A stretch of 64,000 nucleotides of DNA from Pristiophorus japonicus (Eukaryota), in the NCBI RefSeq assembly GCF_044704955.1, contig NC_091984.1, positions 147,374,001 to 147,438,000 of the forward strand, given 5' to 3'. Of the stretch, positions 24,733 to 45,764 are shown in pieces (the first letter of the stretch is position 1; every line of letters starts with the position of its first letter). Below the pieces are notes generated by a model. The model did no database searches. It had not been told where the DNA came from and worked only from the letters and a program-made list of their open reading frames with translations. The translations under genes and the position numbers were made by a program.

Positions 24733-24946
24733 ACAATGCTCCTGTGAAGCACTCGGGGAGTTTTACTGTGTTAAAGGTGCTGTATAAAAGTTGCTGTTGT
24801 TGTTTGTTCTGAGTTAGCTGTTCCAACTGAGGTCGGGATATGACTCACAGCTCAGACTGTGCGGCATCCAGTGATGCAATGTTGTATCGTGGGTTCAAGC
24901 CCCACTCCAGGGACCTGAGTGCAAAATAAAGACATACACGACTGTG

Positions 24947-25390
24947 CAGTCCTGAGGGAGTGCTGCACTGTCAGAGGGGCAGTACTGAGGGAGTGCTGCA
25001 CTGTCAGAGGGGCAGTACTGAGGGAGTGCCGCACTGTCGCAGGAGCAGTACTGAGGGAGTGCCGCACTGTCAGAGGGGCAGTTCTGAGGGAGTGCTGCAC
25101 TGTCAGAGGGGCAGTACTGAGGGAGTGCTGCATTGTCAGAGAGGCAGTACTGAGGGAGTGCTGCACCGTCCGAGGGGCAGTACTGAGGGAGTGCTGCACT
25201 GTCGGAAGGGCAGTACTGAGTAAGTGCTGCACTGTCAGAGGGGCAGTACTGAGGGAGTGCTGCATTGTCAGAGAGGCAGTACTGAGGGAGTGCTGCACCG
25301 TCCGAGGGGCAGTCCTGAGGGAGTGCTGCACTGTCGGAAGGGCAGTACTGAGGAAGTGCTGCACTGTTGGAGGGGCAGTACTGAGGGGTT
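24947..25390. repeat. 33-bp tandem repeat (CAGTACTGAGGGAGTGCTGCACTGTCAGAGGGG), about 13 copies
   Basis: Directly visible; inverted counterpart at 43960-44340. Confidence 0.95.
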
Positions 25391-25393
25391 GCC

Positions 25394-26463
25394 TGTAAGT
25401 GGTTCTCTCAGCCGTACCAAAAACGCACCTCCTACTACAAGTTCTGGACGATCGGGATTATATGGACAGACGAGACTCAGACACATGTTTTTCGGGTTCA
25501 ACCGTATTGTGTTTAATAAGTTTAACAACACCACTCATAAACAGTGCAAAACAGTACATCCCTGGCTTGTCCAATAAGCCCTGCCGTGCTAAGCTACCAC
25601 GGCTTAATAAAAGGACCCTCTCGTGAAATAAACTAACACAGGACCCCCCCAGCACTAAACCCCTTGGGTTTGGTTGGGACTTACAATCACCCCCTCACAC
25701 AGCTAAGTGGTCTTGTGGATGTGCAGGCGTAGGCAATATGCTCACCCTGATTGCCCGTTGTCTTGCTTGCAGCTTCTTCCTGAACGTCTCGCTCCTGGGT
25801 CTTTTCCTGAGCTTCTTCCACCTGAGCTGGAGTTTGTTGCAAAGTGGCTCCTTATATCCCCAAAACCCATCACTTTTCCTCCTGCCAATACTGACCGATG
25901 GATTGACTCCGGTGATCTGTCTGGACCCCTCCTCCCCGCCCTCCCCCCGTGGCCTGGAGTGGCTCGTAGCCTTTGAAATCTTTGTGAAAGATGATATTTT
26001 GTTTTCCCGCTCCCAGGCCTTGCATCTGGAGAGACAATGGGTGCTGATTACTGGATGTCTGTCGTTTCCTGAGTTGATGGCCCCCATTAGCAGGTAATGG
26101 GTTTCGATCACAAACCGATCTTGCTTAACTGGCTTATCTCCTGGAAGACAATGGGCCGGCCATTTCCTGCCTAGCACCAGTTTGGGTTGGGACTGAGTCG
26201 TGACTGTGCTTTAACAATGCGAAGGTACAGTGTCTTTGAGTTACCTCTCGGGGTATTGTTCCCAGGAATTACTTTAGATGGTGATGACATCAATGGGCCT
26301 GGGTTCCCTATTACCCAGCCTGTCAGTGTGAAATGTCCGGTTGTATATGAATGCAGCTAAGTGCCACCCCACAACCTCGCCAACAGTACAGTTCTTTCTT
26401 GGGGATTTGGATTTATGAAATTAAAATATTGTTGATAGAAATGGCCAGAAAGCTGGTGCTACA
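25394..26463 (-). mobile_element. 3' LTR (type A, 1070 bp) of a retrovirus-like element
   Basis: TG..CA ends, PPT GGGGGAT adjacent (26464-26470), TATA-like GATATAAG and ATTAAA on the minus strand. Confidence 0.85.
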
Positions 26464-27245
26464 ATCCCCCTGATGATATTTTGTCACCAAAACCAGAAAT
26501 ATCTCGAATTCCGTCGTCTTCTGCTGCGGGAGGTGCATTGTGGGTCCATAACTGATCAATTACACCCGGGCTCCCGTTTCTTCTGATTTCCTGATTAAGA
26601 CAAACAGATACAGCACCACCGTTCTCTGAGCGCTTTTTCCCTCCACAGGTCGGGCTTTCGTTATTTACATATATATACAGTTCATTCCGCGTTATCGAGT
26701 GCCCCCGGTTAAAATCTCTCCTGTTGGGGCCTCTTGCGGCTCGCGGCCGGTGAATAAGGAGGCATCCACGGCGCCCTAGGCCGTGGTATCCGACTGTTTC
26801 TCCTTACTGCCCTGCCATCTGGGTCATCACCATCATCCTACACCATGGGAGGAAGACCAGCGTCCACCAGGCTCATTATTGTGCCCTGGTTTCTCTTTGC
26901 CTTTGTCTTCCCCCCCTCGGGGTTAAACAACTTGCATTGGTTGATATGGTAGCATTTTGTATGTTTCGGGAGTCTGACTGCACATACCATGGGGCTGGCC
27001 TTATCTACGATGTTATAAGGCCCCATGTACAGTGGCTCGAATGCCCCCACTCGGGCACAGTTCCTGAACATTACCTGGTCTCCCACCTTCCACTCGTGGC
27101 TTCTCCGGGGCTCAAGTAGCAACCGATGTTTCCCGGTGCTGGTTCCCCAGGTTACTGGCTGCCTGCCAGTGAATCTGTTTTAAAACATCAAACAGATTCT
27201 GGACCAACCAGTCCAGGTTTACCTCGCGGTCATGAGCTCATGTGA
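26464..27245 (-). pseudogene. Integrase C-terminus and 3' internal region of element A, with no env
   Basis: ORF 26838-27122 with GPY/F motif (FEPLYMGPYNIVDK), homologous to 29603-29896. Confidence 0.85.
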
Positions 27246-28062
27246 TGCAAGGTGTTAATTTTCCACTCTCCTCTGATTCATAGACCTCGGGAATTACAGG
27301 AAGGACTCCACGTAATGCAAAGTTTAGGCTTAAACCCAACTGTTATTTTGTTTCACAAAAAACAACTAAACATTACAGAACAAGACTTCTTAGAGATTGA
27401 CCGAAGACATACAATCGCCCATCCAGCCAGTTGCTACTGTTGTCCATTGTCGGCTCGTGGAGCGAGGGAAGGTGTTGTGGCCCTGCTGCTGCTTCGTGGC
27501 TGTAGTTCATTGACCTGCTGGTCTGAGATGTTTCTTCGACCTGTTCTTCCTCTCTCTGAACCTTTGTTCTCAGCTCTTACAGATATATCCATTCGATTAT
27601 ACACATCTCCTGCTGGGCTGCCTTTCAGTTAATGCAGCTGGATGAGTCTCGATGGCTGTGGTGATGGGTCTGGATCTGTTCGGACGGCCACAATTCACAC
27701 ATGGAATCGACGGGGCAAAAGATAACTGCTTATCTTTTGTGCCCCGTTATCCAAGAATGCACGCCTTGTGGGATTTTTTGTTGTCCTGGGTTTTCGCAGA
27801 CTTGGAGTCTCCAGAGGGAACTGGTTTTCCCCTCCGGCCAATGAATCCATGGGCTCCTCTGCTTGATTGTGTCAAACCCTTTGTCTCGATGTTAATCGGG
27901 TCTCACTCCTGACCCCAGAAATCACATTAATCAGTGATCAGTCACCACCTGCCCCAGGCTGGTGCTCTTTCTCCTTCCTTACAGTCCCAAAGGTTTTCTT
28001 TTAAGCCATTTTAGTCCATGGCCTCTTGCTGTGCCTCGATCATGAAACATATAACCCTTACA
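27246..28062 (-). repeat. 3' LTR of provirus B
   Basis: Starts TGTAAGG directly after PPT AAAGGGGGAAG (28063-28073) and ends CCTTGCA; aligns loosely to the 5' LTR. Confidence 0.85.
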
Positions 28063-28249
28063 CTTCCCCCTTTAATATCTCTTGTTATAAACTCAGAGAC
28101 ATTACTATAGGTGGCTTCTTCTTCTTTCCATTGAGCTCGTTTGGGTGTATTGCAGTCTTCAGTCAAATCTCCATTTACATACTTTTTACAACAAAACAAT
28201 GTTTGGCCTTAATCCATCTGACTTCAGTTTATACTTTTACAAACACTTT

Positions 28250-29414
28250 CGCCTTGGTTGATTTTAATAACCTTTCAAGATTCCCTTCCCTCATCTTTTG
28301 CTTTAATTAACAGGACAAGACGAATAGATACAACACTATTACCAACTGTACAATTACTAACAAGTGTGATACGATTCGAACCCAGGATGGGATCTCAATA
28401 TTGAGTCCCACATCCCACTGTGGAGGGGCAATCATTTCCTCAATTTCCGCCCTTACTTTTTCATTCTTTTGGTGTAACATGTAATAATGTTTGTGGGACA
28501 ACTCGATGTTCTTTAACAGTTCAGTCAAATGTTCGGGTCACGGTGGGATATAGTATCCAACACGCGATATGTATCCCTGGAGGTTCGTAACGTATCATTG
28601 ACTGTAATATGGATATGTTTGTGGTCTGAGATAGGAATTATTCTTTCTTGTGCTACTTGTGCCTCAACCTGGGGTTTGAAACAAAAGGAAGAATCTGTCA
28701 GCATTTTAGGGAGAGGTTTTAATCTGCTTGCGATCAGTTCGGTCGCATTTACTGCCTTTGGTCAAGGTCACACAGGAATCAAAACCCTGGGTCCAATTCA
28801 TTCCTAACCCGAAATCCTGTCATTGTCATTTAAAAACAATCCCCACACCTCCCCTGCACTTGTGGCTAGATCCAACCACACAGACATAAATCCCTTGTTC
28901 CTCCTTCCACCACTTTTCCCAACACAATTTCACCCCTTCTCTTGTTCCTCTGCTCCGCCTGTTTGAGTTATTACCCAGTTTCTCCCATTCTGTGGATGCA
29001 TTAACTTTTCCCCTGACTGTTTTCTGTAACCACCACCACCCTCCCATGGGGGCAATCCCTTTACATTCCAGACAAACTCGTCTCCCCTCTCTCACCCGTA
29101 CATTCCTGGCCGTGATGTTTACCCTGGGGCAGGACACTGACACCTCCCCAAGTTTACCCTCGGTTTGTCTGGAGTACTTGGTCGAATTTGACCCAAACCA
29201 CCCTGGCCAGCTCCCAGTGTGAGCATAGGCGTTTGTGCCCTTGTTGCTCCGTACGGCTCCCCCTTGAGTTACAGTGGGGCCGGTTCCTCCCATACACCCG
29301 TGTGTAAGGAATGTCTCGGTGTCTCCCCGATCTCCCAATCCTTTAATAATAATGGCCATCCACAGGCCTATCCACAACGTCCACCTCCTCTCGTACCCTT
29401 GGCTCGATTCGCTC
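28250..29414 (-). pseudogene. env-like glycoprotein remnant: signal-like segment, Ig-like domain, heptad region, transmembrane helix
   Basis: ORF 28826-29377 (four N-glycosylation sequons, Ig motif); ORF 28307-28528 ends in hydrophobic IVSHLLVIVQLVIVLYLFVLSC; splice-acceptor-like site at 29415-29416. Confidence 0.75.
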
Positions 29415-29599
29415 CTTTCAAGACAAAAATGAAAGAAATACCTTTGCTCTGTGGGGCCTCCCCCTCACAGGTCCTCCTTCAGTTATTCACAAATGTACAT
29501 AACTCCTTTTTACAATCACTGCTTCCCTCTCCTTTTATCCCGATGCTTGGGCTTACGGAGGCTCGGTGGTGGAGATGGAGGAGGTGTCCAGGGCACCCT

Positions 29600-32500
29600 A
29601 GGTCACAGTACCTGACCACTCCACCTTACTGCTCCGTCCCTTACTTCTCCATCCTCATCATCCCACAGTATTGGTGGGAGGCTTACACTGATCAAACTCA
29701 TTATTGTTCCTGGGGCCTTCGCCCGCTTTTTACTTTTCTCTCCGGGGTTGTACAGCTTACACTGGTTTATATGGAACCATTTTATATGTTTTGGCAGCTG
29801 GATCGTGTACATCATAGGGCTTGCCTTGTCTACAATGCTATATGATCCTTTATACAATGGTTCAAATGCCCCTATTCTGGCATAATTCCTGACCATTACC
29901 TGATCCCCTGGCCCTCCATTTCTGTGTAACCCGGGGTTCCAGCAGCAGTTTATTCTGCTGGTGCTGCCTGCCCATATTGTTAGCTGTTTCCCAATGCAGC
30001 CCCTTCAGATTACCATACAGATCTGACAAACCTGTCCCGTGTGATCTCTTTAACCTGCGTTTCAGTCAGGACTGGTGCTAGGATATGGGTCGGGGTCCTC
30101 ATTAGTCTCCCTGTCATCATCACATGTGGGGAGTGTCCCGTACTCTTAGAGAGACTGGCTCGGTGGCTCATCAGTATTCGGGGTAGGGTCTCATCCCATT
30201 TCTTCGGAGTATCTCCTATCTCCTTCCTAAGCCTCTCTTTTAAGGTCCGGTTTGTCCTCTACTGGATCTAACGATTGGGGGTTATACGTCACATGAAATT
30301 TCCCCTGTATCCCGAACAGCTTTAGGGTGGCCTGCATTACTGCTCCGGTGAAATGACTCCCTTGATCTGATTCCACTATCAGGGGCAGTCCCCATTGAGA
30401 AAATACTTCTCGCACCAGAACCTTTGCTGTGACTATCGCGGTGGCCCCGACATGGAAAAGCTTCAACCCATTTTGTAAAGAGATGTATTAACACCAAGCA
30501 ATATTTATTGCCTCTGCCTGAGGTGGGCAGTGGCCCAATTAAATCTATCTGTATAGACTGCCATGGCCCCTCTACCCTCCTCGTGTGTCCCAACGGAGCC
30601 TTCCTCGGTGTGGATTGTTTGTGGCACATACCAGACAATTCTGGCAATAATCCCTGACATCACTTCTAAGCCCGGGCCACCATCCCACGGCTTCTACTTT
30701 ATTCCACATTGTTTCTGGCCCTGGATGTCCAGCTCCTGGACCCACATGCACCAGCTGCAAGAATTCTTCCCTGCACTGCCCTGGCACGATCCAACTATCT
30801 CCCTTGAACAACATTCCTTGCTTTACTGCTATGTCTGCAGCTCCCAAAGGTCCCACTGCAGACTTCCCGTCTATTTTGTCCCTAATCGCTGCTCTAAGGT
30901 CTGCATCCCGTAGCTGAGCCTGTTTTAAATCAGGCGGCAATGGGACTTCTTTGGGCCTCTCTCTGCCTGTTACAGCCGTGATCTGTCCACAGTGATATGG
31001 GTCCCAAGGTGTCCCTTCTCCTGCCCCTGTTTTAGCCAGTGTGTCTGCTTTCTCATTCCCTTCCCACTTGGGCTCTGTCTTAGAGTGTGCTTTGACCTTT
31101 TGGATGTAGTCACCCTTCTGGTCCGTACCCTTGACGTGCAAAATGACTTTTAACAACGGAACCATCACCAACCATTTTCCATCTGAGGACTTAAACCCTC
31201 GCCTCGCCAATATGGCTAAATACTCTGTACAGGAGTTAGAAATGAACATGGAGTCTGAACATATCGTATAGGGAGTTGGGAATTCGTTCGGGTGTGTGAC
31301 TACATACGCTACTGCTGCTAGCTCGGTCTGCTGCGTACTTAAAGTGTTGGGGATTTTATGGCTTTCTCCATCACTGCCTCTGGATCGTAAATCCCACAGC
31401 CTGTCTTTCTCTCTCTGTTTATTACTGAACTGGACCCATCTACATAGACGTCCCTGCTTGTCAGGTGTTCTCCTGCTCAGAATCCCACATCTACATCCCA
31501 CACTCCTTCCACTGAACACACATGAGCTGCCCCTGGATAAACCAGGTTCGGGGCGAGCTTTAATTCTCCTGGCCTCTCGACCTTCAGGTCTAACTGAGTA
31601 AGCAACAATGTCCAGCGGGCAATCCTGTTACTGCTCACTGTCCCATCTTTCATTCTACCATCCAGTAACACTTGTGTTGTGGTGTGACAGGTCAGTAAAG
31701 TTACTGTAGCTAACCCTGTGAGCGACCGAAAATGCTTCACTGCCCAAAATGTTGCTAACAGATGTCGTTCGCAATTCGAAAAGCTCTTTTCTATTTCGGT
31801 GAGAACTTGGGAGGCGTAGGCCACCGGTCTCAGCTTGCTGTGTCGCTCCTGGAGTAACACTGCACTCAAACTGTCCCCAGTCATTGCTACCTCCAGACTA
31901 AAGTCCTGGTCCCCATTTACTGCTCCCGACGCTGGTGCTGTCTGTAACACCTCTTTTAACCAAATGAAAGTTTCCTGACAACTCTCACTCCATTCCCACT
32001 CCACTCCTTTCCTAAGAAGCCTCAACAAAGGAGCTGCCATGGTTACATATCCCTCTATGAATTCCCTGCAGTGACCCGTTATTCCCAGGAAAGACCTTAC
32101 TCCAGAAACGTCCCTCGGAACAGGTAGTTCCTGGACTGACTTTCTCTTCGCTCCATCTATGGCTCTCTCTCCTGCCCTAATGGTCAAACCTAGAAACTGC
32201 ACCTCCTCTTTGCCTATTTGAGCTTTCTTGGGACTGACTTTAAAACCTGCTTCTTTCAACAAATGCAGTAACTCACTGAATAAGGGCCCGTGGTCCTCCG
32301 CACTTTCGGAGAATAACAACAGGTTGTCCACGTATTGGACCAACCGGTCTGGCTGACTAAAACCGTTTAATGCCTCGGCCATACTTTGGTGGAAGATCGA
32401 GGGACTGTTGTGAAACCCTTGTGGAAGACATGTCCACTTATACTGCTGACCTTTAAAGGTAAAGGTCGATTTATACTGGTCCTCCCATCTCAGGGGAATG

Positions 32501-33401
32501 GACCAAAACCCGTTTGAAATGTCCAGCACTGTGAAAGTTGTTGTGGCCGCAGGGATACTCCCGATCAAATCCGCTACCACTGCTACCGTGGGCGCACAGG
32601 CTGGAATATTTTTATTCAGGTTTCGGTCATCTACCGTGGCCCTCCATGAGTTATCGGGCTTCTTTACTGGCCATAGGGGTGAGTTTACATGTGTGGCTAT
32701 GGTCCTCAACACACCTTGATCCACCAGGGAATTTATAGCAGTTTCCAAATCCCTTTCTGCTTCCCGGGGAAAATTATACTGTTTCTGGGGTCGTGTCATC
32801 GAATCCCCATCTATCTTCACCTCCACCCTAGATACTCTCCCGCAATCGTGCTTGTGAATTGCAAACGCATCCATATTCTCCTGTACATACCTTGATACCG
32901 GGCCGGAATGTTATCTACTAATCGTTCTCAGTCATAACTCTCTTTCGGCTTCATCGTGCAGGTGCTACCTTTGTCTGTACTGTCCCTGGGAATCACTACG
33001 ATCTCTCCCATCTTATCTGCATCAACTGCCCCCCATAGACAATTGTTTTTCATATCCACTATGGTGTGGTGTGCCAACATGTAGTCGGTCCCGAGAACTC
33101 CCGAACCGGGCTGTTCCCACTTCATTAAAATGCCCTCCCATTTCATTATGTTCGGTCCTAACTCTACGGTTGAGGGTTTCCACACTGCCCCAGCCTGCTC
33201 ATTACCCGTAAAACCCACCAGTGTAAATGGTACTCCGCTCAACCACGGGGAAGTGGTCGGATTCGGTGAGTGGATAACCGTGCTAGAGGCTCCTGTATCT
33301 ACTAGATCCCTTCCCCTAACTGTTTCCACCTTCACATCCACACATGGCCTGCCCCACCCATCATATATGAGCAGACACAGGTATTCTGGCTGGGCACACC
33401 G
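29600..33401 (-). pseudogene. pro-pol: protease, RT, degenerate RNase H (tether), RNase H, integrase
   Basis: LVDTGAS; LDISNGFWSI, LPQGFHNSP, YVDN (32323-32334); DVYVDGS, TELAAV, CSDS, VKAHS, GNEKAD; HHCC, IDLIGPLP, SDQGSHF, GPY/F-like motif; several frameshifts. Confidence 0.92.
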
Positions 33402-35001
33402 TCACAGAGGGGGTGCCGACACATTGGGTCCCTTTTCTCCCACTGCTGCGTCCAGCTTTCCTCCACCCGTGCCCATAACCTGCTGTAATGCGGCCACTAA
33501 AACCTGCACTGGGTCGTCGGCTACCTTCTTCTGGCCTTTTCCTGCCTCAGCACCTCGTACCCTGGCTTCCCTCCTTTAGAGAGCCTACAATCCTTGCTCC
33601 AGTGTCCCAACTTCCCACAGTTAAAACACTCGCCTTTAGATCGACCCGCATTACCTCCCTCTTGTCTCCATTCTTTCTTTGGCCTAACCTCTCCTTTTAC
33701 TTCGTGTACCTTCCCGTTTAGTTTCTCCTCCTCCCCTTGCCTGGACTTAAAGCGAGAGTTAATCTTCTCAGCACCCCTGCCTCTGTATTCTGGAGATGGT
33801 CTGGGTCAAACCATACTTCGACCTTTGCTCTGAGCTGTGGCAAACTGTTACCATTACGGTTCTCAGCCAATGGTTCCTGGGTTCCTCTATTAAATCTGCC
33901 CACACCAGATTTCCTCCAGCAGCCCTTAAATAAATCACCCACAGTCTGTCTGCAAACGTATCGGGTGATTCGTTTACTTGCTGCCTAGTCTGTTCTACCT
34001 GCCAGAACGGACTACCCTGACTGTACCCGAGCACTGCCATCATTTGCTCCTTTAAGCCCTGTGGGGTTCCTGCACCTAACTTGGTGGCTGTCGACAAGCT
34101 CTGATAAAGCTTCCCCTCCAGCGAGAGCAGTGTTAGCTGCACTTTCTCCTCCTCGCTGCAGTTATTGATACCCCCTATCTGCTCTATATTAGTAAAATGA
34201 ACAGAGGCATCTCCTCCTTGCTTTAACTGTACTACACCCGTCAGCATCTCCTGCAGCTGAAGCGGTGTGTATGGGATCACTAGTCGCTCTGTAATGGTGC
34301 CGGACCACCATTTGCGGGGGTGGGCTGAATTTCTGCTGTCTCAAAGGACACATCGGTTTCAGGGGTCCCGGTGCCTCGGGAGCCGGCCGATGCTCGCTAT
34401 ACTCGGGCCCATTGTCTGACTCTTTCCCCTCTGGATCCCAATCTTCCTCGCCTGTTCCGGGTGCCCTGAGACAAACCATCCCTTTGGTCCCGTCTAACTC
34501 TGCCGTTAATTGGTGGATTTTTTCCTTACAAGGTCCGTGATCTGCTCTCGCGTAACCCTGTTTCTGGGCTACGTGATAGGCTATCGACTCTCCTGACCTG
34601 GTCCTCTGCCTCTTGGCTCTTTCTAAATGCCTTTCACTTTGTTCAATGTGGGTCTGCTGCTGCTTTTTGTACTCGGTCACCTGGCATTGTAAATACTCAA
34701 GGTGATTCCGTGCTGTTTCTTCCTTCCTACCCTGGTCCTGCCTTTCCTTCTCCAAACTGCCTACCTCGCCCTTTAACCCTTTATTCTCCTTCTCCAGCTT
34801 TCCGACCCTTTCTCGTTACAGTTGTGTCTGCTTCTGCAGGTATATGAGCCAAACCTCCTTCTCTTTTGACCCTTTGTGGTTACTACTGACTGTCCACTCT
34901 GCTGTTTTTTCCTGCGGATCCCCAGAGTGCAGCATTTCCCGTGCCCATAGCCCTGAAATGTTCAATTTGTTGCCTATATATCCAGCTACCTTAGCCTCCA
35001 T
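33402..35001 (-). pseudogene. gag: N-terminal coiled coil, capsid-like region, single CCHC knuckle
   Basis: ATG at 35001; ORFs 34189-34755 and 33768-34280; CFNCGKLGHWSKDC at 33587-33628; TGA at 33402-33404. Confidence 0.85.
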
Positions 35002-35079
35002 GGACTTCCTACGATGGCTGTTAGCTGCGGGCTCTACCGCGCTTTGCTGCGGTGAGTCCACTTCCAGTGCCTCTGGCTG

Positions 35080-35830
35080 AGAAATTCTCTCTGACTACCT
35101 TGGTGTCCCCTGAGACCACCTCGCAGTGACCTGCGGTTCCTGTTACTCTGGCTTCTCTCTGTGGCTACCCTAGTCGACCCGAGACTACTCCAGCATGTCA
35201 GAGACTTTCTCTCCTGGTCCCCTAGTCGCCCTTGAGATCACCTTTGGCCTCCCTGAGACGACCCCGTGACAATATTGGCTTTTCTCTGTGACTACCCCAG
35301 TCAACCGAGATTACTCCAGACTATCCGAGACTGTTTCTCCCTCAGGCTGCCCTGGCTGCCTGTGAGATTATCCCTGGCCTCCCTGACACCCTGCGCAGAC
35401 TACCTGCGATTACTTCTCCCAGTGGCTGCCCTAGTCAGCCGGAGCTCTTCGGCTACTCCTGGTCCCCCTTGAGATTCCCTTGGTCTCCCTGAGACCCCTG
35501 CGCAGACTACCTGTGATTACTTCACCCGGTGGCTGCCCTAGTCAGCCGGAGCTCTTCGGCTACTCCTGGTCCCCCTTGAGATTCCCTTGGTCTCCCTGAG
35601 ACCCCTTCGCAGACTACCTGCGGCTTTCTCGGTGGCTACACTCGTCAAGCCAGGATTACTCCAGCCTACCCAAGACTGTTCCTTCCTCTGCTGGCTGCCC
35701 TAGCTGCCCTTGAGAGTACAATGGTCTCCCTCAGACCACTGAGCAACTACCTGAGACTTCTTTTCTCAGTGGCTACCCTAATCGACTCAAGCCTATCAGA
35801 CCCTGTTACTCTCCTGGTCGCCCTAGCCGC
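35080..35830. repeat. Tandem ~108-bp repeats in the proviral 5' leader
   Basis: Near-identical units at ~35390-35497 and ~35497-35605, with diverged units on both sides. Confidence 0.85.
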
Positions 35831-35937
35831 CCTGGAGAAGATCCTTTTCGACCACCTTAGCCGACCTTAGACATAACCAAGCCTCCCTCGGGGTTTTTGC
35901 TCTGGTATGTGTCCGTAATACTATTCCCAAAGCCGAG

Positions 35938-35955
35938 GTCCTGCCGCGGTCACCA
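35938..35955 (-). promoter_or_regulatory. Primer-binding site, tRNA-Arg(TCG)-like
   Basis: TGGTGACCGCGGCAGGAC, 5 nt from the LTR end; 17/18 match to the complement of the vertebrate tRNA-Arg(TCG) 3' end as recalled. Confidence 0.8.
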
Positions 35956-36625
35956 ATTTCTGTAGGTAGTTTATTTTTCACTCTACTCCGATTCTTCGAC
36001 CTGGGAACTTGTAGTGGGAAAGGACAACATGTGGCACAACATTTAGGCTTCACCCAGTGTCAGTTTTATTGTGCACAAAAACCGTCGAAAACTACAGGAC
36101 TAGACTTCTGAGAGAAATCGACTGAAATCATACAATTGCCCTTCCTGGCTGTAGCTATTGTAGGTCCGTGGTCATTGGTTCCGTGACCGGTTGGTTCTTC
36201 TTCTGGCCGTTCTCTGCAGTGCTGTTACTTCTGTGTACGTTTCGTACAACATGTTCCTCCGTCCATTCGTCTGTTCGTGCTTTCAACCTGTGTCCATCTG
36301 TACATGTGTCCTTCTACTTCTCCTGTGTGCTTCTTCTTCCGTCTGTTCCTATCCTTGTTCCATCTCCTGCTGAGCTGCTTCTAGCTCACATATTTATATC
36401 CAGGTTATGACTGACCTCCCGCCACTGCGGTTTCTGATAAAGTGTTTGCATCAATACATTGTTTTGTGGTCCCCTTGGTTGATTGATTACAATAATGAAC
36501 TCGTCTGTTTTCCCATTTGCACACTGAGTCTGCAAGGCTCAAGTTGATTTCTCATCTTAACACCTCATCCTAAAAAATGTGCAACTGTTGTGGTTCCTTT
36601 GTTGTCAGGTCCTTTTACAGACTTG

Positions 36626-39504
36626 GGGCTAGAACCTCCTCTTTTATTGCCTGTTTAATGCACACTAAACACCCATTTTACCACTGAAATGACATATAAT
36701 GCCCAGATATCACCCATTTTGGCACAAAATGGAAACTGACGGGCTTTTTTAGGAGACTTGTCGCCGAGCGTTACTTTCCCAATGGGCTTAACGCAGAGAA
36801 TAAATATTATCGCCCACCTACTTTTTTGGGGCGGAATCAGCAGAATGGGCAAATTCAACGCCCATATTATCACCCAGCGTTACTTTCCTCGTGGAATTAA
36901 TGCCGAGATTCAACATTAACACCCGCCGACTGTTTTTTGTCATGAACAGCATATTTACCCAAAGTAACGGCCATGGAGATCACCCACCGTCAATTTCACC
37001 ACCTCGTACACATATCGCCCACAATATCGCTCGCTCAAAAAACCACCCACAAAAAGTGGAACTAACCAGAACGAATCACAGCGTTATGGACGCCATGATG
37101 TAGATCACATGTCGCGTCCTTTCACCTCGGCGGAGTTCAGATGTACTCTGCAGGTCGTTGGAGTTGATTTGAACATCTCTGAAAACATCTTGACCACACT
37201 GTGACCGATTGGAATTGAAGAGGTGTGCTCGTCGGGACATTCTTTGCTTGTGTGCAATCGGTGACAGACACAGAGCTACTGCAATGGGGCCTGTCCTTTC
37301 TCACTCTCTCTTGGTGACCAAATATATGCAGCAGACTCAACATCGCTGAAGGAACGCTACATTGCATTATGTGCCCAATGTACGAAATAACAGACAGATG
37401 AGGAGGACCAGACGTTACACCCCCCGCAAGTACAAGGAGAAGCATTCTTACCTCGACTTGCCCGACACCACCTGCCTTCGGAGACTGTGCTTCCACAAAG
37501 AGGTTATCACTGAGGTATGCCAGCTGATAAGGGCAGGCCTACAGCCTGGCAGCACCATCAGAACTGCACTGTCCGTCGAGGTCAAAGTCACCACGCCACT
37601 ATCGTTCTATGTCTCGGGTTCTTTTCAGGCCACAGCTGGTGACATTTGCAGACTTTCTCAGCATGCCACACATTGCTGCATTAGACAGGTCACTGAAGCC
37701 CTGTACACACGCAGGAGGGACTTGATCAGCTTCTCTATGACCAGGAAGGCACAGAGTGAGAGGGTTCGAGGTTTCTCCAGAATTGCAAACTTCCCCAAGA
37801 TGCAGGGAGCAATAGACTGTACGCACATCGCGATGTGGGCACCTTTTCAGGATGCCGCAAGGGATTCCACTCCCTGAATGTCCAGCTGGTTGTCGACCAC
37901 CAGCAAATTATACTGGCAGTGAATGCTCAATTTCTGGGCAGCATCCATGCTGCACACATCCTGCGTGAGAGCATTGTATCTGACTTGTTTAACATTGAGC
38001 CACAAGGTCAATGCTGGAAACTTGGGGCCAAAGGATATGGCCTTGCCACCTGGCTGATGACCCCCTGCGTGACACCCACACTGAGGCCGAGAGGTGATAC
38101 AACGAGAGCCACAGAGCAACTCGCAATATTGTGGAGAAAACCATTGGAGTGCTGAAGCAGCGCTTTCGATGCCTGGACCACTCAGGTGGTGAGCTCCAAT
38201 ACTACCCTGAGCAGGTAGCTCAATTCGTGGTGATGTGCTCCATGCTGCACAACTTGGCTATCAGGAGGGAACAAGAATTGTCTGATGAGTCTGACAGTCC
38301 ATCTCACCAGAGAGAGGAAGAGGAGGATGAGGAGGCGGACGCCGACATCGGATCAGACAATCAGGCTGACGCTGAAGCCATGCCCCCGCCCTTCTGTAGA
38401 TCGCATGAAAGGGCCCATGGTGGCATGATAGCTGCAAGCGCCTTACACCAGGAGCTCATCAATGATCGCTTTGCCTAAAAGAACGTTGGTGTTATTTCCA
38501 CAGCTGACACACTGCTGGGTGTGCAGGTCATAAATTAATCGTGGACATCACCTTGGTGACCGTTAAAGTTTACTTTGATTATATCCTTTGATGTTAACAA
38601 ATCACCAGCGTGTTACGGTACAGCTATCTGAGCCAATGTGCTGCAAGGTTTTGTTCAATAAAAAACATTTAAACCAAACATTAGTCTGAAATCATCAGTA
38701 TTTCTGTACAAACCAACCCTTCCCCCCACCCACCCCACTTCTCCTCCCCAACTCTACCCCTTCCCCTTCCCCTTCTGACTCCAAGCCGCCTGACCGCGGA
38801 GGTTCTCAGGCGATGCTTCATTGTGAGGTGGGTGGTGATGGACAAAGCACTGCTTGGACGGATATGGGAGAAGATGGTCCCAAGGTGGGAACGTGCTTCG
38901 AGCCAGAAGCGAGATGTTGCTCCTGGCTCTCATGTGTGGTTGGCAATGGGGTTGCATCACCTTGGGGTGTAGTGCGGCACTCCGGGATCACTGGGAGCCC
39001 TCTGCCACCAGTGTTCCTGGCTACCAGCTCCAGGGCCTCCTCCATCCCTTACATTTTATATGTTATTTGTGGGACAAAAACTCGATGCCAACTATGTTCT
39101 TGGTGCTTAGTGCGCTTTTTGCTGTTGATGAATCTCCCTTGTGCCTCCCACAACAGCCAAACAAACGCACACCACAGACACACACGCTTTCAGTGCCTCT
39201 GAGCTCCCTCTCTCTCTGTCTCCTCTTCTGCGTATGTCATGGTTACCCTTGACCTCCAGAATCGAGGGAATGGACCATTGCCATGCTGTTGCTAAGGACG
39301 ACCGCACTTTACAACAGAAGGTCAGAAAAATGTAACGCTGCCGCCCATTTGAACTCGTTCGCGATAACGGCCATTTTCAAAGATGTAAACTAAGTGTTTT
39401 GAGAATGGGCGAGAAGCCGGCGATCTGAAAATCCTTTTTTACCACCCACGCCGGAAATCACGCCCATTTTTGGGCACAAAGCTCAAAAGTGGAGGTTCTA
39501 GCCC
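36626..39504 (+). mobile_element. PIF/Harbinger DNA transposon with both termini
   Basis: TIR GGGCTAGAACCTCC at both ends; 3-bp TSD TTG (36623-36625 and 39505-39507). Confidence 0.95.
37284..38478 (+). pseudogene. Harbinger (HARBI1-family) DDE transposase, disrupted
   Basis: GAIDCTHIA, KGFHSLNVQLV, GSIHAAHIL, LGAKGYGL, EKTIGVLKQRFRCL, CSMLHN; stop, frameshifts and catalytic D-to-A changes. Confidence 0.92.
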
Positions 39505-42888: not shown

Positions 42889-43957
42889 TGTAGCTCCAGC
42901 TTTCTGGCCATTTCTATCAACAATACTTTAAATCCTTAAATCCAAATCCCCAAGAAAGAACTGTCCTGTTTGGCGAGCTTGTGGGGGTGGCATTGAGGTG
43001 CATTCATATACAACCGGACATTTCACACTGACAGGCTGGGTGGCAGGGAACCCAGGCCCATTGATTTCATCACCATCTAAAGTGATTCCTGGGAACAATA
43101 TCCCGAGAGGTAACTCAGAGACACTGTTCCTTCGCATTGTTAAAGCACAGTCACCACTCAGTCCCAACCCAAACTGGTGCAGGACAGGAAATGGCCGGGC
43201 CATTGTCTTCCAGAAGATAAGCCGGTTAAGCAAGATCAGTTTGTGATCGAAACCCATTACCTGCTAATGGGGGCCATCAACTCAGGAAACGACAGACATC
43301 CAGTAATCAGCACCCATTGTCTCTCCAGACGCAAGGCCTGGGAGCGGGAAAACAAAACACAATTTTTCACAAAGATTTCAAAGGCTACGAGCCGCTCCAG
43401 GACACGGGGAGGTGGGGGGTCCAAACAGATCACCGGAGTCAATCCATCGGTCAGTATTGGCGGGAGGAAAGGTGATGGGTTTTGGGGATATAAGGAGCCG
43501 CTTTCCAAAAAGCTCCAGCTCAGGAGGAAGAACGCTACGGAAAAAGCTCAGGAAAAAGCCCAGGAAAAAGCTCAGAAAAAACCCAGGAGTGAGACGTTCA
43601 GGAAGAAGCTGCAAGCAAGACAACGGGCAATCAGGGTGAGCATATTAGCTGTGTGAGGGGGTGATTGTAAGTCCCAACCAAACCCAAGGGGTTTAGTGCT
43701 GGGGGGGTCCTGTGTTAGTTTATATCACGGGAGGGTTCTTTTATTAAGCCGTGGTAACTTAGCACGGCAGGGCTTATTGGACAAGCCAGGGTTGTACTGT
43801 TTTGCACTGTTTATGAGTGGTGTTGTTAATCTTATTGAACATAATACAGTTGAGCCTGAAAAAAATGTGTCCGAGTCTGATCTATCCATATAATCCCTAT
43901 CGTCCAGAACTTGTAGTAGGAGGTGCATTTACGTTACGCCGGAAAAAAACACCTACA
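42889..43957 (+). mobile_element. LTR type A, second copy, without internal sequence
   Basis: Reverse complement of 25394-26463 with the same satellite junction; no PPT, no TSD. Confidence 0.88.
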
Positions 43958-43959
43958 GG

Positions 43960-44340
43960 CACCCCCTCAGTACTGCCTCTTCGATAGTGCGGCACTCCCT
44001 CAATACTGCCCCTCCGGCAGTGCGGCACCCCCTCAGTACTGCCAATCTGACAGTGCGGCACTCACTCAGTACTGTCACTCTGACAGTGTGGCACTCCCTC
44101 AGTACTGCCCCACCAACATTGCGGCACTCCCTCAGTACTGACGCTCTGACAGTGCGGCACTCCCTCAGTACTGCCCCACCAACATTGTGGCACTCCCTCA
44201 GTACTGACGCTCCAACAGTGCGGCACTCCCTCAGTACTGCCATTCTGACAGTGCGGCACTCCCTCAGTACTGCCCCCCTGACAGTGCAGCACTCCCTCAG
44301 TACTGCCCCTCTGACAGTGCAGCAATCCCTCAGGACTGCA
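43960..44340. repeat. 33-bp tandem repeat, inverted copy, about 11 units
   Basis: Directly visible. Confidence 0.95.
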
Positions 44341-45764
44341 CAGCAGTGTATGTCTTTATTTTACACTCAGGTCCCTGGAGTGGGGCTTGAACCCATGATA
44401 CAACATTGCATCACTGGATGCTGCACAGTCTGAGCTGTGAGTCATATCCCGACCTCAGTTGGAACAGCTAACTTAGAACAAACAACAACAGCAACTTTTA
44501 TACAGCACCTTTAACACAGTAAAACTCCCCAAGTGCTTCACAGGAGCGTTATAGAATAAAGATTGACAGCGAGCCACGTAAGGAGACATTGAAAATTGCA
44601 GCTCAGTCAAATTGTGAGGAAAATTGTCAGTGCTGTCTTCATACCAAAAGGGGACGATGTTGCTTCTGAAAAGACCAGATTTTTTGACAATTTCTGTGAA
44701 ACTCAATTGATTGGTTTGTAAAACCCGTTTGTACCAAACCTCCAGTCAGGTTTGCAGAATCATTTCCAGTTCCCCACGTGTCATTTGATGGTGGATCTCA
44801 GCATGTATCTCCTCGTCCGCTCGTGAGGCGGTGTCTCAGACCGATTGGTGGGTCAGCAGCCACTCCGCACTGCATCGAGCATCGGCAGGCCATTCCACTG
44901 TGGAAGACCTCACCGCGGAGCTCTGTACACAGGGTATAACCACACAGAGACGCTCTGCCGCCAGGTACAGCAGCAACAACCTGCATTGCTATAGCAACTG
45001 GAACATTAGAACAACATCCCAAGGCAGCTGACAGAGACGTAATCTGGTCAAAGTGGTGCTGAGCCAAATGGGGAGGGGCTGGGAGGGTGATCAAAACGCT
45101 CAGTCGCAGATTGGGTTTGAAGGGAGGTCTTAAAAGAGGAGAGAGGTGGAGTGGCAGAGTGGTTTAGGGAGCAGAGAGTTAGGGCCCAGGCAGCTGAAGG
45201 CACGGCCCCCAATGGAGGGGGAAGGGAAGGGGGTGATGGATAAGAAGCCTGAGCCAGATACAGCGGCCCCTGAAACAACAACAACTTGTATTTATATAGC
45301 GCATGTTGTGACAATGACAGACAGCGAGAATATAACCCTGAGAATGTAACACAGTATTTGCAGCACTTGACACTCTGGGGAAAGCTTGTAATTTTAAATC
45401 CATGAGCTGTACCTAAGCGAGAGCAGGACCTGTTTGTGACCGGTGCGGAGATCACCACTTACAGAAGGGAGTTACTGCAGGGAATTCAGGGCCACAGTGA
45501 CCTCCTGGACTAGTTTCCATCGCCTGGGGAGCGGGGGATGGTCGGAGAGGAGTTTCCCAGATTTATTTCCCCCAATGGGTTTTTTCCCTGGTTTTTTGCC
45601 TCTCCCAGGAGATCAGGTAGTTTTGGGTGGGGTGGAGAGTCTATACTGTGATACACAAGGTATCACAATTGTGTGGGACGGGCTGGATTGACCACAGGGT
45701 CTTTACCTGTCCGTCACTGTCCGCGGGTTTGGGTTTCAAAGACGTAGAGCTGAATTGGAAAGAA

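Follow-up and report, generated by a model that had tools for sequence, protein, structure and literature searches.

The locus described here raises the question of what an immunoglobulin (Ig)-like stretch is doing in the N-terminal part of a retroviral envelope protein (Env). An earlier note on the window (by which we mean the whole 64,000-nucleotide stretch analysed, C8:147374001-147438000 of the 5.9-Gb Pristiophorus japonicus genome) had read a 183-residue open reading frame as the start of an env-like gene, had seen an Ig-superfamily (IgSF) pattern in it and had proposed that the pattern might mark a captured receptor-binding or immune-decoy domain.

The assignment to a retroviral env was borne out, as the frame lies within an LTR provirus (window 27250-36626) that runs on the minus strand from about 36600 to about 27250 in the order LTR, primer-binding site, gag, protease, reverse transcriptase (RT), tether, RNase H, integrase and env. 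The 5' LTR (35953..36626, ends approximate) is like the LTR region of dispersed copies, which is found twice in locus L049, and the primer-binding site at 35938..35955 is complementary at 18/18 positions, with the CCA, to a tRNA 3' end. The tRNA genes that match it contain an intron and have TCG in the anticodon loop; ARAGORN gave them no name, and we infer that the primer was tRNA-Arg. The primer-binding-site pattern (window 35938-35955, minus strand) occurs 985 times genome-wide, part of these in ~3-kb tandem arrays on C27, and the long leader between this site and gag contains degenerate tandem repeats (window 35149-35838). Also on the minus strand are a broken gag region recognised by position and motif (33500..34815; coiled-coil N-terminus, capsid-like part and CCHC motif), a protease (32928..33401; Pfam RVP, E=3.8e-4), the RT with its tether, a degenerate RNase H (31477..32910; Pfam RVT_1 and RT_RNaseH_2), and a frameshifted second RNase H and integrase (29600..31627; Pfam RNase_H, Integrase_H2C2, rve and SH3_Tf2-1). 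The RT active-site motif is altered in this copy. The 3' LTR region, again on the minus strand, lies at approximately 27250..27900 and is 70% like the 5' LTR over 200 nt only; dating of the provirus from its LTRs was ruled out, the two regions being too unlike. Just past the 3' LTR region is a second integrase C-terminal fragment (window 26757-27083, minus strand) that is 69% like the main integrase and is an older related insertion. The surroundings also hold 33-bp tandem arrays (window 24847-25491 and 43892-44404), which lie within a larger repeat present as two inverted arms that are ~87-93% alike, and fragments of Ty3/gypsy, LINE and Harbinger-like transposase elements (37350-38478).

The env frame itself is open for 212 codons (29464-28826, minus strand; translation P0001). 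Its beginning differs from that given previously, as the supposed start at 29377 is really a TTG inside the signal-peptide-like segment (29333..29383, minus strand), and the window copy lacks a start codon at the position that opens the frame in 16 of the 17 deduplicated dispersed family-A loci showing the motif of this segment. The signal segment is followed on the same strand by an N-terminal arm of ~67 residues (29132..29332) with one Cys and an invariant sequon, which is conserved in families A and B and in skate, and then by the probable IgSF domain of I/V type (28829..29131; ~100 residues, six conserved Cys), hereafter the module. The arm shows an omega of 0.16 for shared variants and a pLDDT below 40 and, used as a negative control, did not match the host Ig profiles. 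Directly behind the module is a premature stop (28826..28828, minus strand) that is common to most of the tandem copies on C8, and therefore the 183-residue frame is a pseudogene fragment rather than a gene. A linker towards F2 (28700..28825, minus strand), with a frameshift near 28760, leads to a deletion junction (28691..28700, no strand assigned) at which ~1.13-1.16 kb of the dispersed copies is missing, including F2, the furin site, the fusion peptide, HRA and most of F1. What remains beyond it is a broken F1 C-terminus (28310..28690, minus strand) with HRB and the transmembrane helix (TM, ~28310-28384). Likeness to the dispersed copies is 85-90% upstream of the junction and 76-81% downstream; because the two sides differ in this way and the LTRs are only 70% alike, the window copy is probably a chimera. 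We conclude that the env copy in the window is a dead, non-coding fragment, and it is the rest of the family that bears on what the intact protein looked like.

Matches to the module were found at least ~150 times in the genome for family A, to which the window copy belongs, and at least ~150 times for a sister family, B, that is ~50% identical to family A in the module. The Ig-like module is thus common to the family. It had also been asked whether the module lies in frame with a fusion core resembling the F proteins of Mononegavirales, and this proved to be so: in five natural loci (L032, L053, L054, L102 and L106) the B-strand Cys, the F-strand Cys and the furin/fusion-peptide junction fall in one open frame under a strict pattern, and L101 and L103 show the same layout by eye. 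L102, of family B, runs from signal peptide through module to F1 in 588 codons; every copy examined was either incomplete or interrupted. The layout recurs in P0010, a skate gene model that is 43% identical over module and core. The order in natural copies is signal, 67-residue arm, Ig-like module, linker, F2, RxK/RR, fusion peptide, HRA, Cys-rich F1, HRB and TM. Three gene models (P0018, P0014 and P0019) have env pieces fused to host exons, one example being a C2H2 zinc-finger protein that ends in arm plus Ig-like module; such fusions may be annotation artefacts or exonisation. A third, distant provirus (L035:600-3900, plus strand) has an F-like env of 25-32% identity, with a different N-terminal arm whose Cys...Trp pattern recalls an Ig strand pair.

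The position of the window invites another account, namely that the Ig-like stretch was gained locally from an Ig light-chain locus after integration, or that the host domesticated a secreted Ig fragment. The window does lie among kappa-type V genes on C8. The 24 best matches (92-100% at the amino-acid level) are at C8 143-149 Mb and on three small contigs; the deletion junction is common to 17 of these tandem copies and the 212-codon frame is likewise open in 17/24. However, the tandem copies are without a start codon, the module also occurs in the sister family, in skate and in copies scattered over many contigs, and it fails to match a V-set profile for which the kappa V genes nearby were the main source. 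Origin from those V genes was rejected on this last ground, and we regard a local or domesticated origin as very improbable and largely refuted. The kappa-type light-chain V exons of C8 form an array at 143.5-148.8 Mb with ends that resemble recombination signals, the nearest listed exon (L111) being 14 kb past the window end. Near-identical provirus copies are interleaved with these exons, and the proviruses look to have been co-amplified with the light-chain clusters. No RNA run was present among the sequencing-run holders listed.

We then considered whether the module is an Ig domain at all. The residues on which the earlier note relied (Cys102, Cys105, Cys152, Cys166 and Trp116, the third W of WWW, in a numbering equal to that of P0001 minus 29) are all where it placed them, as are the sequons NST, NIT, NAS and NNS; a third conserved Cys pair, 83/174 in the same numbering, had been missed. 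It can be seen that the Ig hallmarks are in register, with C134 on strand B, W145 on strand C and Y193-x-C195 on strand F, and that they are well conserved across the alignment rows: Cys112 in 52/52, Cys131 in 52/52, Cys134 in 49/52, Trp145 in 52/53, Cys181 in 40/44, Tyr193 in 33/41, Cys195 in 41/41 and Cys203 in 39/40. The extra pair Cys102/Cys152 (131/181 in P0001) had been ascribed to neighbouring B and E strands, and this fits the predicted strands, in which Cys131 falls on B and Cys181 on E; the pairing of the two is a prediction.

Profile comparisons point in the same direction. The window segment matched Pfam Ig_3 with E=0.0027 and 18.6 bits, below the curated cut-off of 30 bits, and 16 of 37 aligned segments matched it at E<=0.1, again all below 30 bits. 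With hhalign the module aligned to a host I-set profile built from 14 exons with a probability of 68.9% (E=4.5e-5, score 30.7), a score reached by 0/100 column shuffles (maximum 18.3), as against only 1.5% for a profile of a host V-set sample. In the ESM Atlas the first matches scored 0.92-0.93 and 10/10 of the best family-bearing matches were in the Ig clan, although a third of shuffled proteins likewise reach 10/10. Profile searches of the PDB gave IgSF proteins as 12/16 matches in one case and as 11/15 (at E<=5) with an Ig-only profile, best E 0.016-0.035; the latter included CD8alpha, CRTAM, VEGFR1 and ROBO2, with ArfGAP1, a non-Ig zinc finger, joint first at E=0.035. With two further profiles no more than one or two Ig matches appeared, at E 0.3-0.9. 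A word-index protein search with P0001, which covered longer proteins, found no match, and phmmer of P0001 and of P0040, one of the more distant relatives described below, against the PDB returned nothing useful.

Structure prediction, proposed earlier as a check through AlphaFold and Foldseek, was carried out and gave no confident Ig sandwich (pLDDT ~41-55). Model 1, of the window segment with 53 rows, is a beta-sandwich of mean pLDDT 41.5 whose matches were jelly-roll-like (seipin, CBM and TNF-like folds, Z<=7), with no Ig chain among the rows listed by Foldseek and VIA. Residues 76-153 of model 2, made from L102, did show weak IgV matches (Fab, Nav beta4, catshark CD8alpha and CD79b, Z 3.6-4.0), with bacterial Ig-like and phage sandwiches interspersed among them at Z up to 4.5. 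The preference of model 1 for jelly-roll-like matches would suit a viral beta-sandwich that is not Ig, or an Ig domain remodelled together with the arm into a fold of its own, serving in either case folding or trimer stability; so would the three disulfide-ready Cys pairs and the Trp-rich E-F stretch, which are atypical for Ig, and the fact that every Ig score stays below threshold. Against this, evidence for IgSF comes from Pfam, the shuffle-controlled host profile, the language-model neighbours, the PDB profiles and model 2 alike, and the B-strand Cys, C-strand Trp and F-strand YxC fall in register across the Ig signals. We think such a non-Ig or remodelled fold unlikely, and that the module at 28829-29131 probably has an Ig fold. 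Its likely source is a cell-surface gene of the host, from which it would have been acquired in the distant past. A donor search among 44 host domains found none that stands out (best single domain E=0.003), and because no host gene was found capture is a matter we infer.

The earlier note had also suggested comparing substitution rates across copies. Variants were counted column by column, with the tandem C8 copies cut to two and twice-fetched loci dropped. For the family A module (28 copies), non-CpG variants present in three or more copies numbered 11 N/16 S (omega 0.19; 0.29 for shared variants when CpG sites are included), whereas private non-CpG variants numbered 98 N/26 S (omega 1.04). 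The family B module (45 copies) gave an omega of 0.62 for private and 0.28 for shared variants; all these omega values are approximate, as the copies are best matches and some in family B are tandem duplicates. Shared variants gave 0.16 for linker and core, RT (11 copies) gave 0.05, and between families A and B (1134 pairs) the module had a pN of 0.30 and a pS of 0.79. Given the shared omega of 0.19 against the private one of 1.04, we conclude that the module was under purifying selection while the virus replicated and decayed neutrally once inserted. Many receptor-binding surfaces are hypervariable; the module, with an omega of ~0.2, is not, and is conserved like the core.

Natural copies have a furin site followed by a fusion peptide and HRA, with HRB and TM also present. 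The core was modelled with AlphaFold from the natural frame L102 (63 aligned rows), and pLDDT was 70-93 across much of it. Foldseek against the PDB returned paramyxovirus and pneumovirus F proteins (13 matches at E<=0.001, the best being hPIV3 F at E=2.4e-5), and against BFVD it gave 28 matches, among them lispivirus and paramyxovirus F down to E=3e-7 and also models of baculovirus F and walleye retrovirus Env. VIA scored the core model at Z 10.3 with hPIV3 F and foamy Env. No sequence-level match of the core to F was found in Pfam or the PDB. The core is thus predicted to have an F-type (class Ib) fold. The walleye matches are Q9WHI8 (Env of walleye epidermal hyperplasia virus 1, E 9e-6) and A4GTG3 (Env of walleye dermal sarcoma virus, E 1e-4), and these models hint at F-like Envs in epsilonretroviruses.

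Paramyxoviruses use a separate attachment protein. We consider it probable that an IgSF domain and an F-like core were combined in one Env here and that the domain served as a built-in attachment head. The ancestral Env would have joined a host-derived Ig domain to an F-like fusion core; its signal would be cleaved, the protein would trimerise, and furin would cut at the F2/F1 site only. In the alignments the stretch that joins module to F2 has no clear furin motif, and the module would therefore stay on the N-terminal subunit and three would ride on each trimer. The module may then have bound a partner on the cell surface, which would probably be an adhesion protein or a further member of the IgSF, and partner binding would have been followed by F-type refolding as described for class Ib fusogens in the accessible part of PMC11468914. 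It would in this way have replaced the separate attachment protein, as the foamy receptor-binding domain (RBD) and coronavirus S1 are reported to do on the same scaffold.

An effect on the immune system could be imagined for an Ig-derived module, which might mimic a host IgSF ligand as a decoy or shield while receptor binding resided in the arm or the F core. The nearest sequence matches are indeed lymphocyte-surface IgV proteins (CD8alpha, CD79b and CRTAM), three sequon positions in or beside the module are conserved across families, and headless F-like Envs exist (P0053, P0056 and those of lokiretroviruses), which means that the core can work alone. However, these matches, at E>=0.016, do not point to any particular molecule that is mimicked, the module's profile agrees much more closely with host I-set than with the V-set sample from the host, and the module occupies the position of known binding modules on the F scaffold (PMC11468914, as far as accessible). 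We therefore hold a decoy or shield to be unlikely and retain the attachment head as the preferred reading.

Searching 1.84 billion representative sequences with a profile yielded 55 proteins, of which 16 were compared; that these distant F-like proteins are proviral Envs is suggested by their core. Other, weakly Ig-like heads were seen in bamboo shark (P0020, which bears the UniRef name 'Ig-like domain-containing'), in frogs (P0027 and P0050) and in P0040, whose head matches V-set at E=0.045 and is CD2-like by eye while being without the canonical Cys pair. The frog head reached 0.87-0.89 with Ig clusters of the ESM Atlas, which we take as a lead only. In the Mustelus proteins P0017 and P0031 the head is rich in Cys and gave no Ig signal, and P0053 and P0056 are headless. 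Profile scores between the heads of the distant Envs and the present module were at noise level (P<=3%). Some distant relatives have a different Ig-like head, some a non-Ig one and some no head, which suggests that attachment modules are swappable. The P0050 cluster (Mantella, 16 members) contains many full-length 677-residue gene models of F-like Env with an Ig-like head and is a young family in the frog genome.

With regard to the retroviral lineage, the RT matched MLV-type structures in the PDB at 188-194 bits, foamy at 171-184 and Ty3 at 140-144. Among the nearest Pol relatives one record is 71% identical and frog and coelacanth Pols 46-48%; they carry automatic 'NYNRIN-like' names, a weak hint of affinity to lokiretroviruses, for which an integrase related to CGIN1/NYNRIN is a distinguishing mark. 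A 53-row RT tree, whose rows are the 36 best and every sixth other match with no labelled Loki or SnRV row, groups the element with retroviruses and the frog and coelacanth Pols, apart from Ty3/gypsy (100/100). A scan of viral contigs with the RT gave no match. The dual RNase H (tether plus RH) is present as in lokiretroviruses, an arrangement common to all retroviruses. By eye, the tether resembles the Loki tether; the RT signatures common to the six Loki RTs compared in the published alignment are absent from the present RT, and the Loki RT motif is in none of the 120 Pol relatives listed. In two blocks of the RT core in that alignment, again by eye, 65/125 positions are identical to SnRV as against 46/125 to Loki-Bsp. 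SnRV uses an Arg primer, as appears to be so for the present provirus. Sharks are known hosts of the snakehead retrovirus clade (clade Huo, PMC6001957; elephant-shark CmiERV lineage I, PMC4422223; both seen in part). The accessible part of PMC12193657 gives SnRV a 136-residue Env tail and accessory ORFs, whereas the present Env tails are short, and no record named SnRV Env occurred among the protein profile search and BFVD matches. On these sequence comparisons the lineage probably belongs to the SnRV clade; a basal lineage not yet named is distinctly less likely, and a lokiretrovirus less likely still.

Lokiretroviruses (lokiorterviruses) are alike in several respects in the accessible parts of PMC7947760: they have the same LTR-gag-pol-env order with tether and second RNase H, and their Env likewise has a signal, RxKR site, fusion peptide, coiled coil, TM and F-like core, with an F2 start motif, P..GP..G, that aligns by eye with the present Env. 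Unlike the present Env, the lokiretrovirus Envs compared have no N-terminal extension; in the supplement of that paper, 17 of the 18 starts compared (of 23) pass from the signal straight to the F2 strand and one is without an N-terminus. The same accessible text reports none from three chondrichthyan genomes. An F-like Env is not exclusive to lokiretroviruses, because foamy and walleye-virus Env models also match, and the present results suggest that such Envs also occur beyond lokiretroviruses and foamy viruses. The present Env would work like that of a lokiretrovirus, yet should not be filed as one.

F-type fusogens normally rely on a separate attachment protein. A tentative reading, which we put forward as a possibility and not as the expected outcome, is that in an SnRV-like basal lineage of sharks, skates and frogs the F-like Env scaffold repeatedly captured different host IgSF heads; they would be I-type here, a CD2/SLAM-like V in P0040 and others in bamboo shark and frogs, and would fill the N-terminal slot used by coronavirus S1. 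Headless, Ig-like-headed and non-Ig-headed Envs on one core form a natural series for the addition of modules to class Ib fusogens.

The likeness to class Ib fusogens lies in the predicted core fold and in an added module that replaces a separate attachment protein. In the accessible part of PMC11468914, F is described as a minimal scaffold to which binding modules are added N-terminally (coronavirus spike) or by insertion (foamy Env). In foamy Env the RBD is non-Ig and is inserted after F2, ahead of the furin site, whereas the module here is N-terminal and IgSF-like, and it is distinct from the Ig-type fold that F itself possesses, which is domain II in F1 (PMC11468914). The earlier view that an IgSF domain in an env is unusual applies in a narrower sense. 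For Envs that are F-like or come from chondrichthyans, the literature open to search, which did not extend to subscription papers and bioRxiv supplements, contained no account of an Ig domain. For retroviral Envs in general the view is too broad, as Ig-type receptor-binding domains are described in gamma-type Env (RBD-C) and a SIRP-like IgV in the alpha-like Env-Dbi (bioRxiv 10.1101/2024.03.17.585361, accessible text); a term search of that text found no mention of loki, shark or fish. As here, the domains of that preprint form an N-terminal IgV-like module with an extra disulfide and a proposed host capture. They differ in standing on another fusion scaffold, the gamma/alpha-type TM, and in having an identifiable donor, so that with the present family the capture of Ig domains, described for gamma/alpha-type Envs, would reach a second scaffold.
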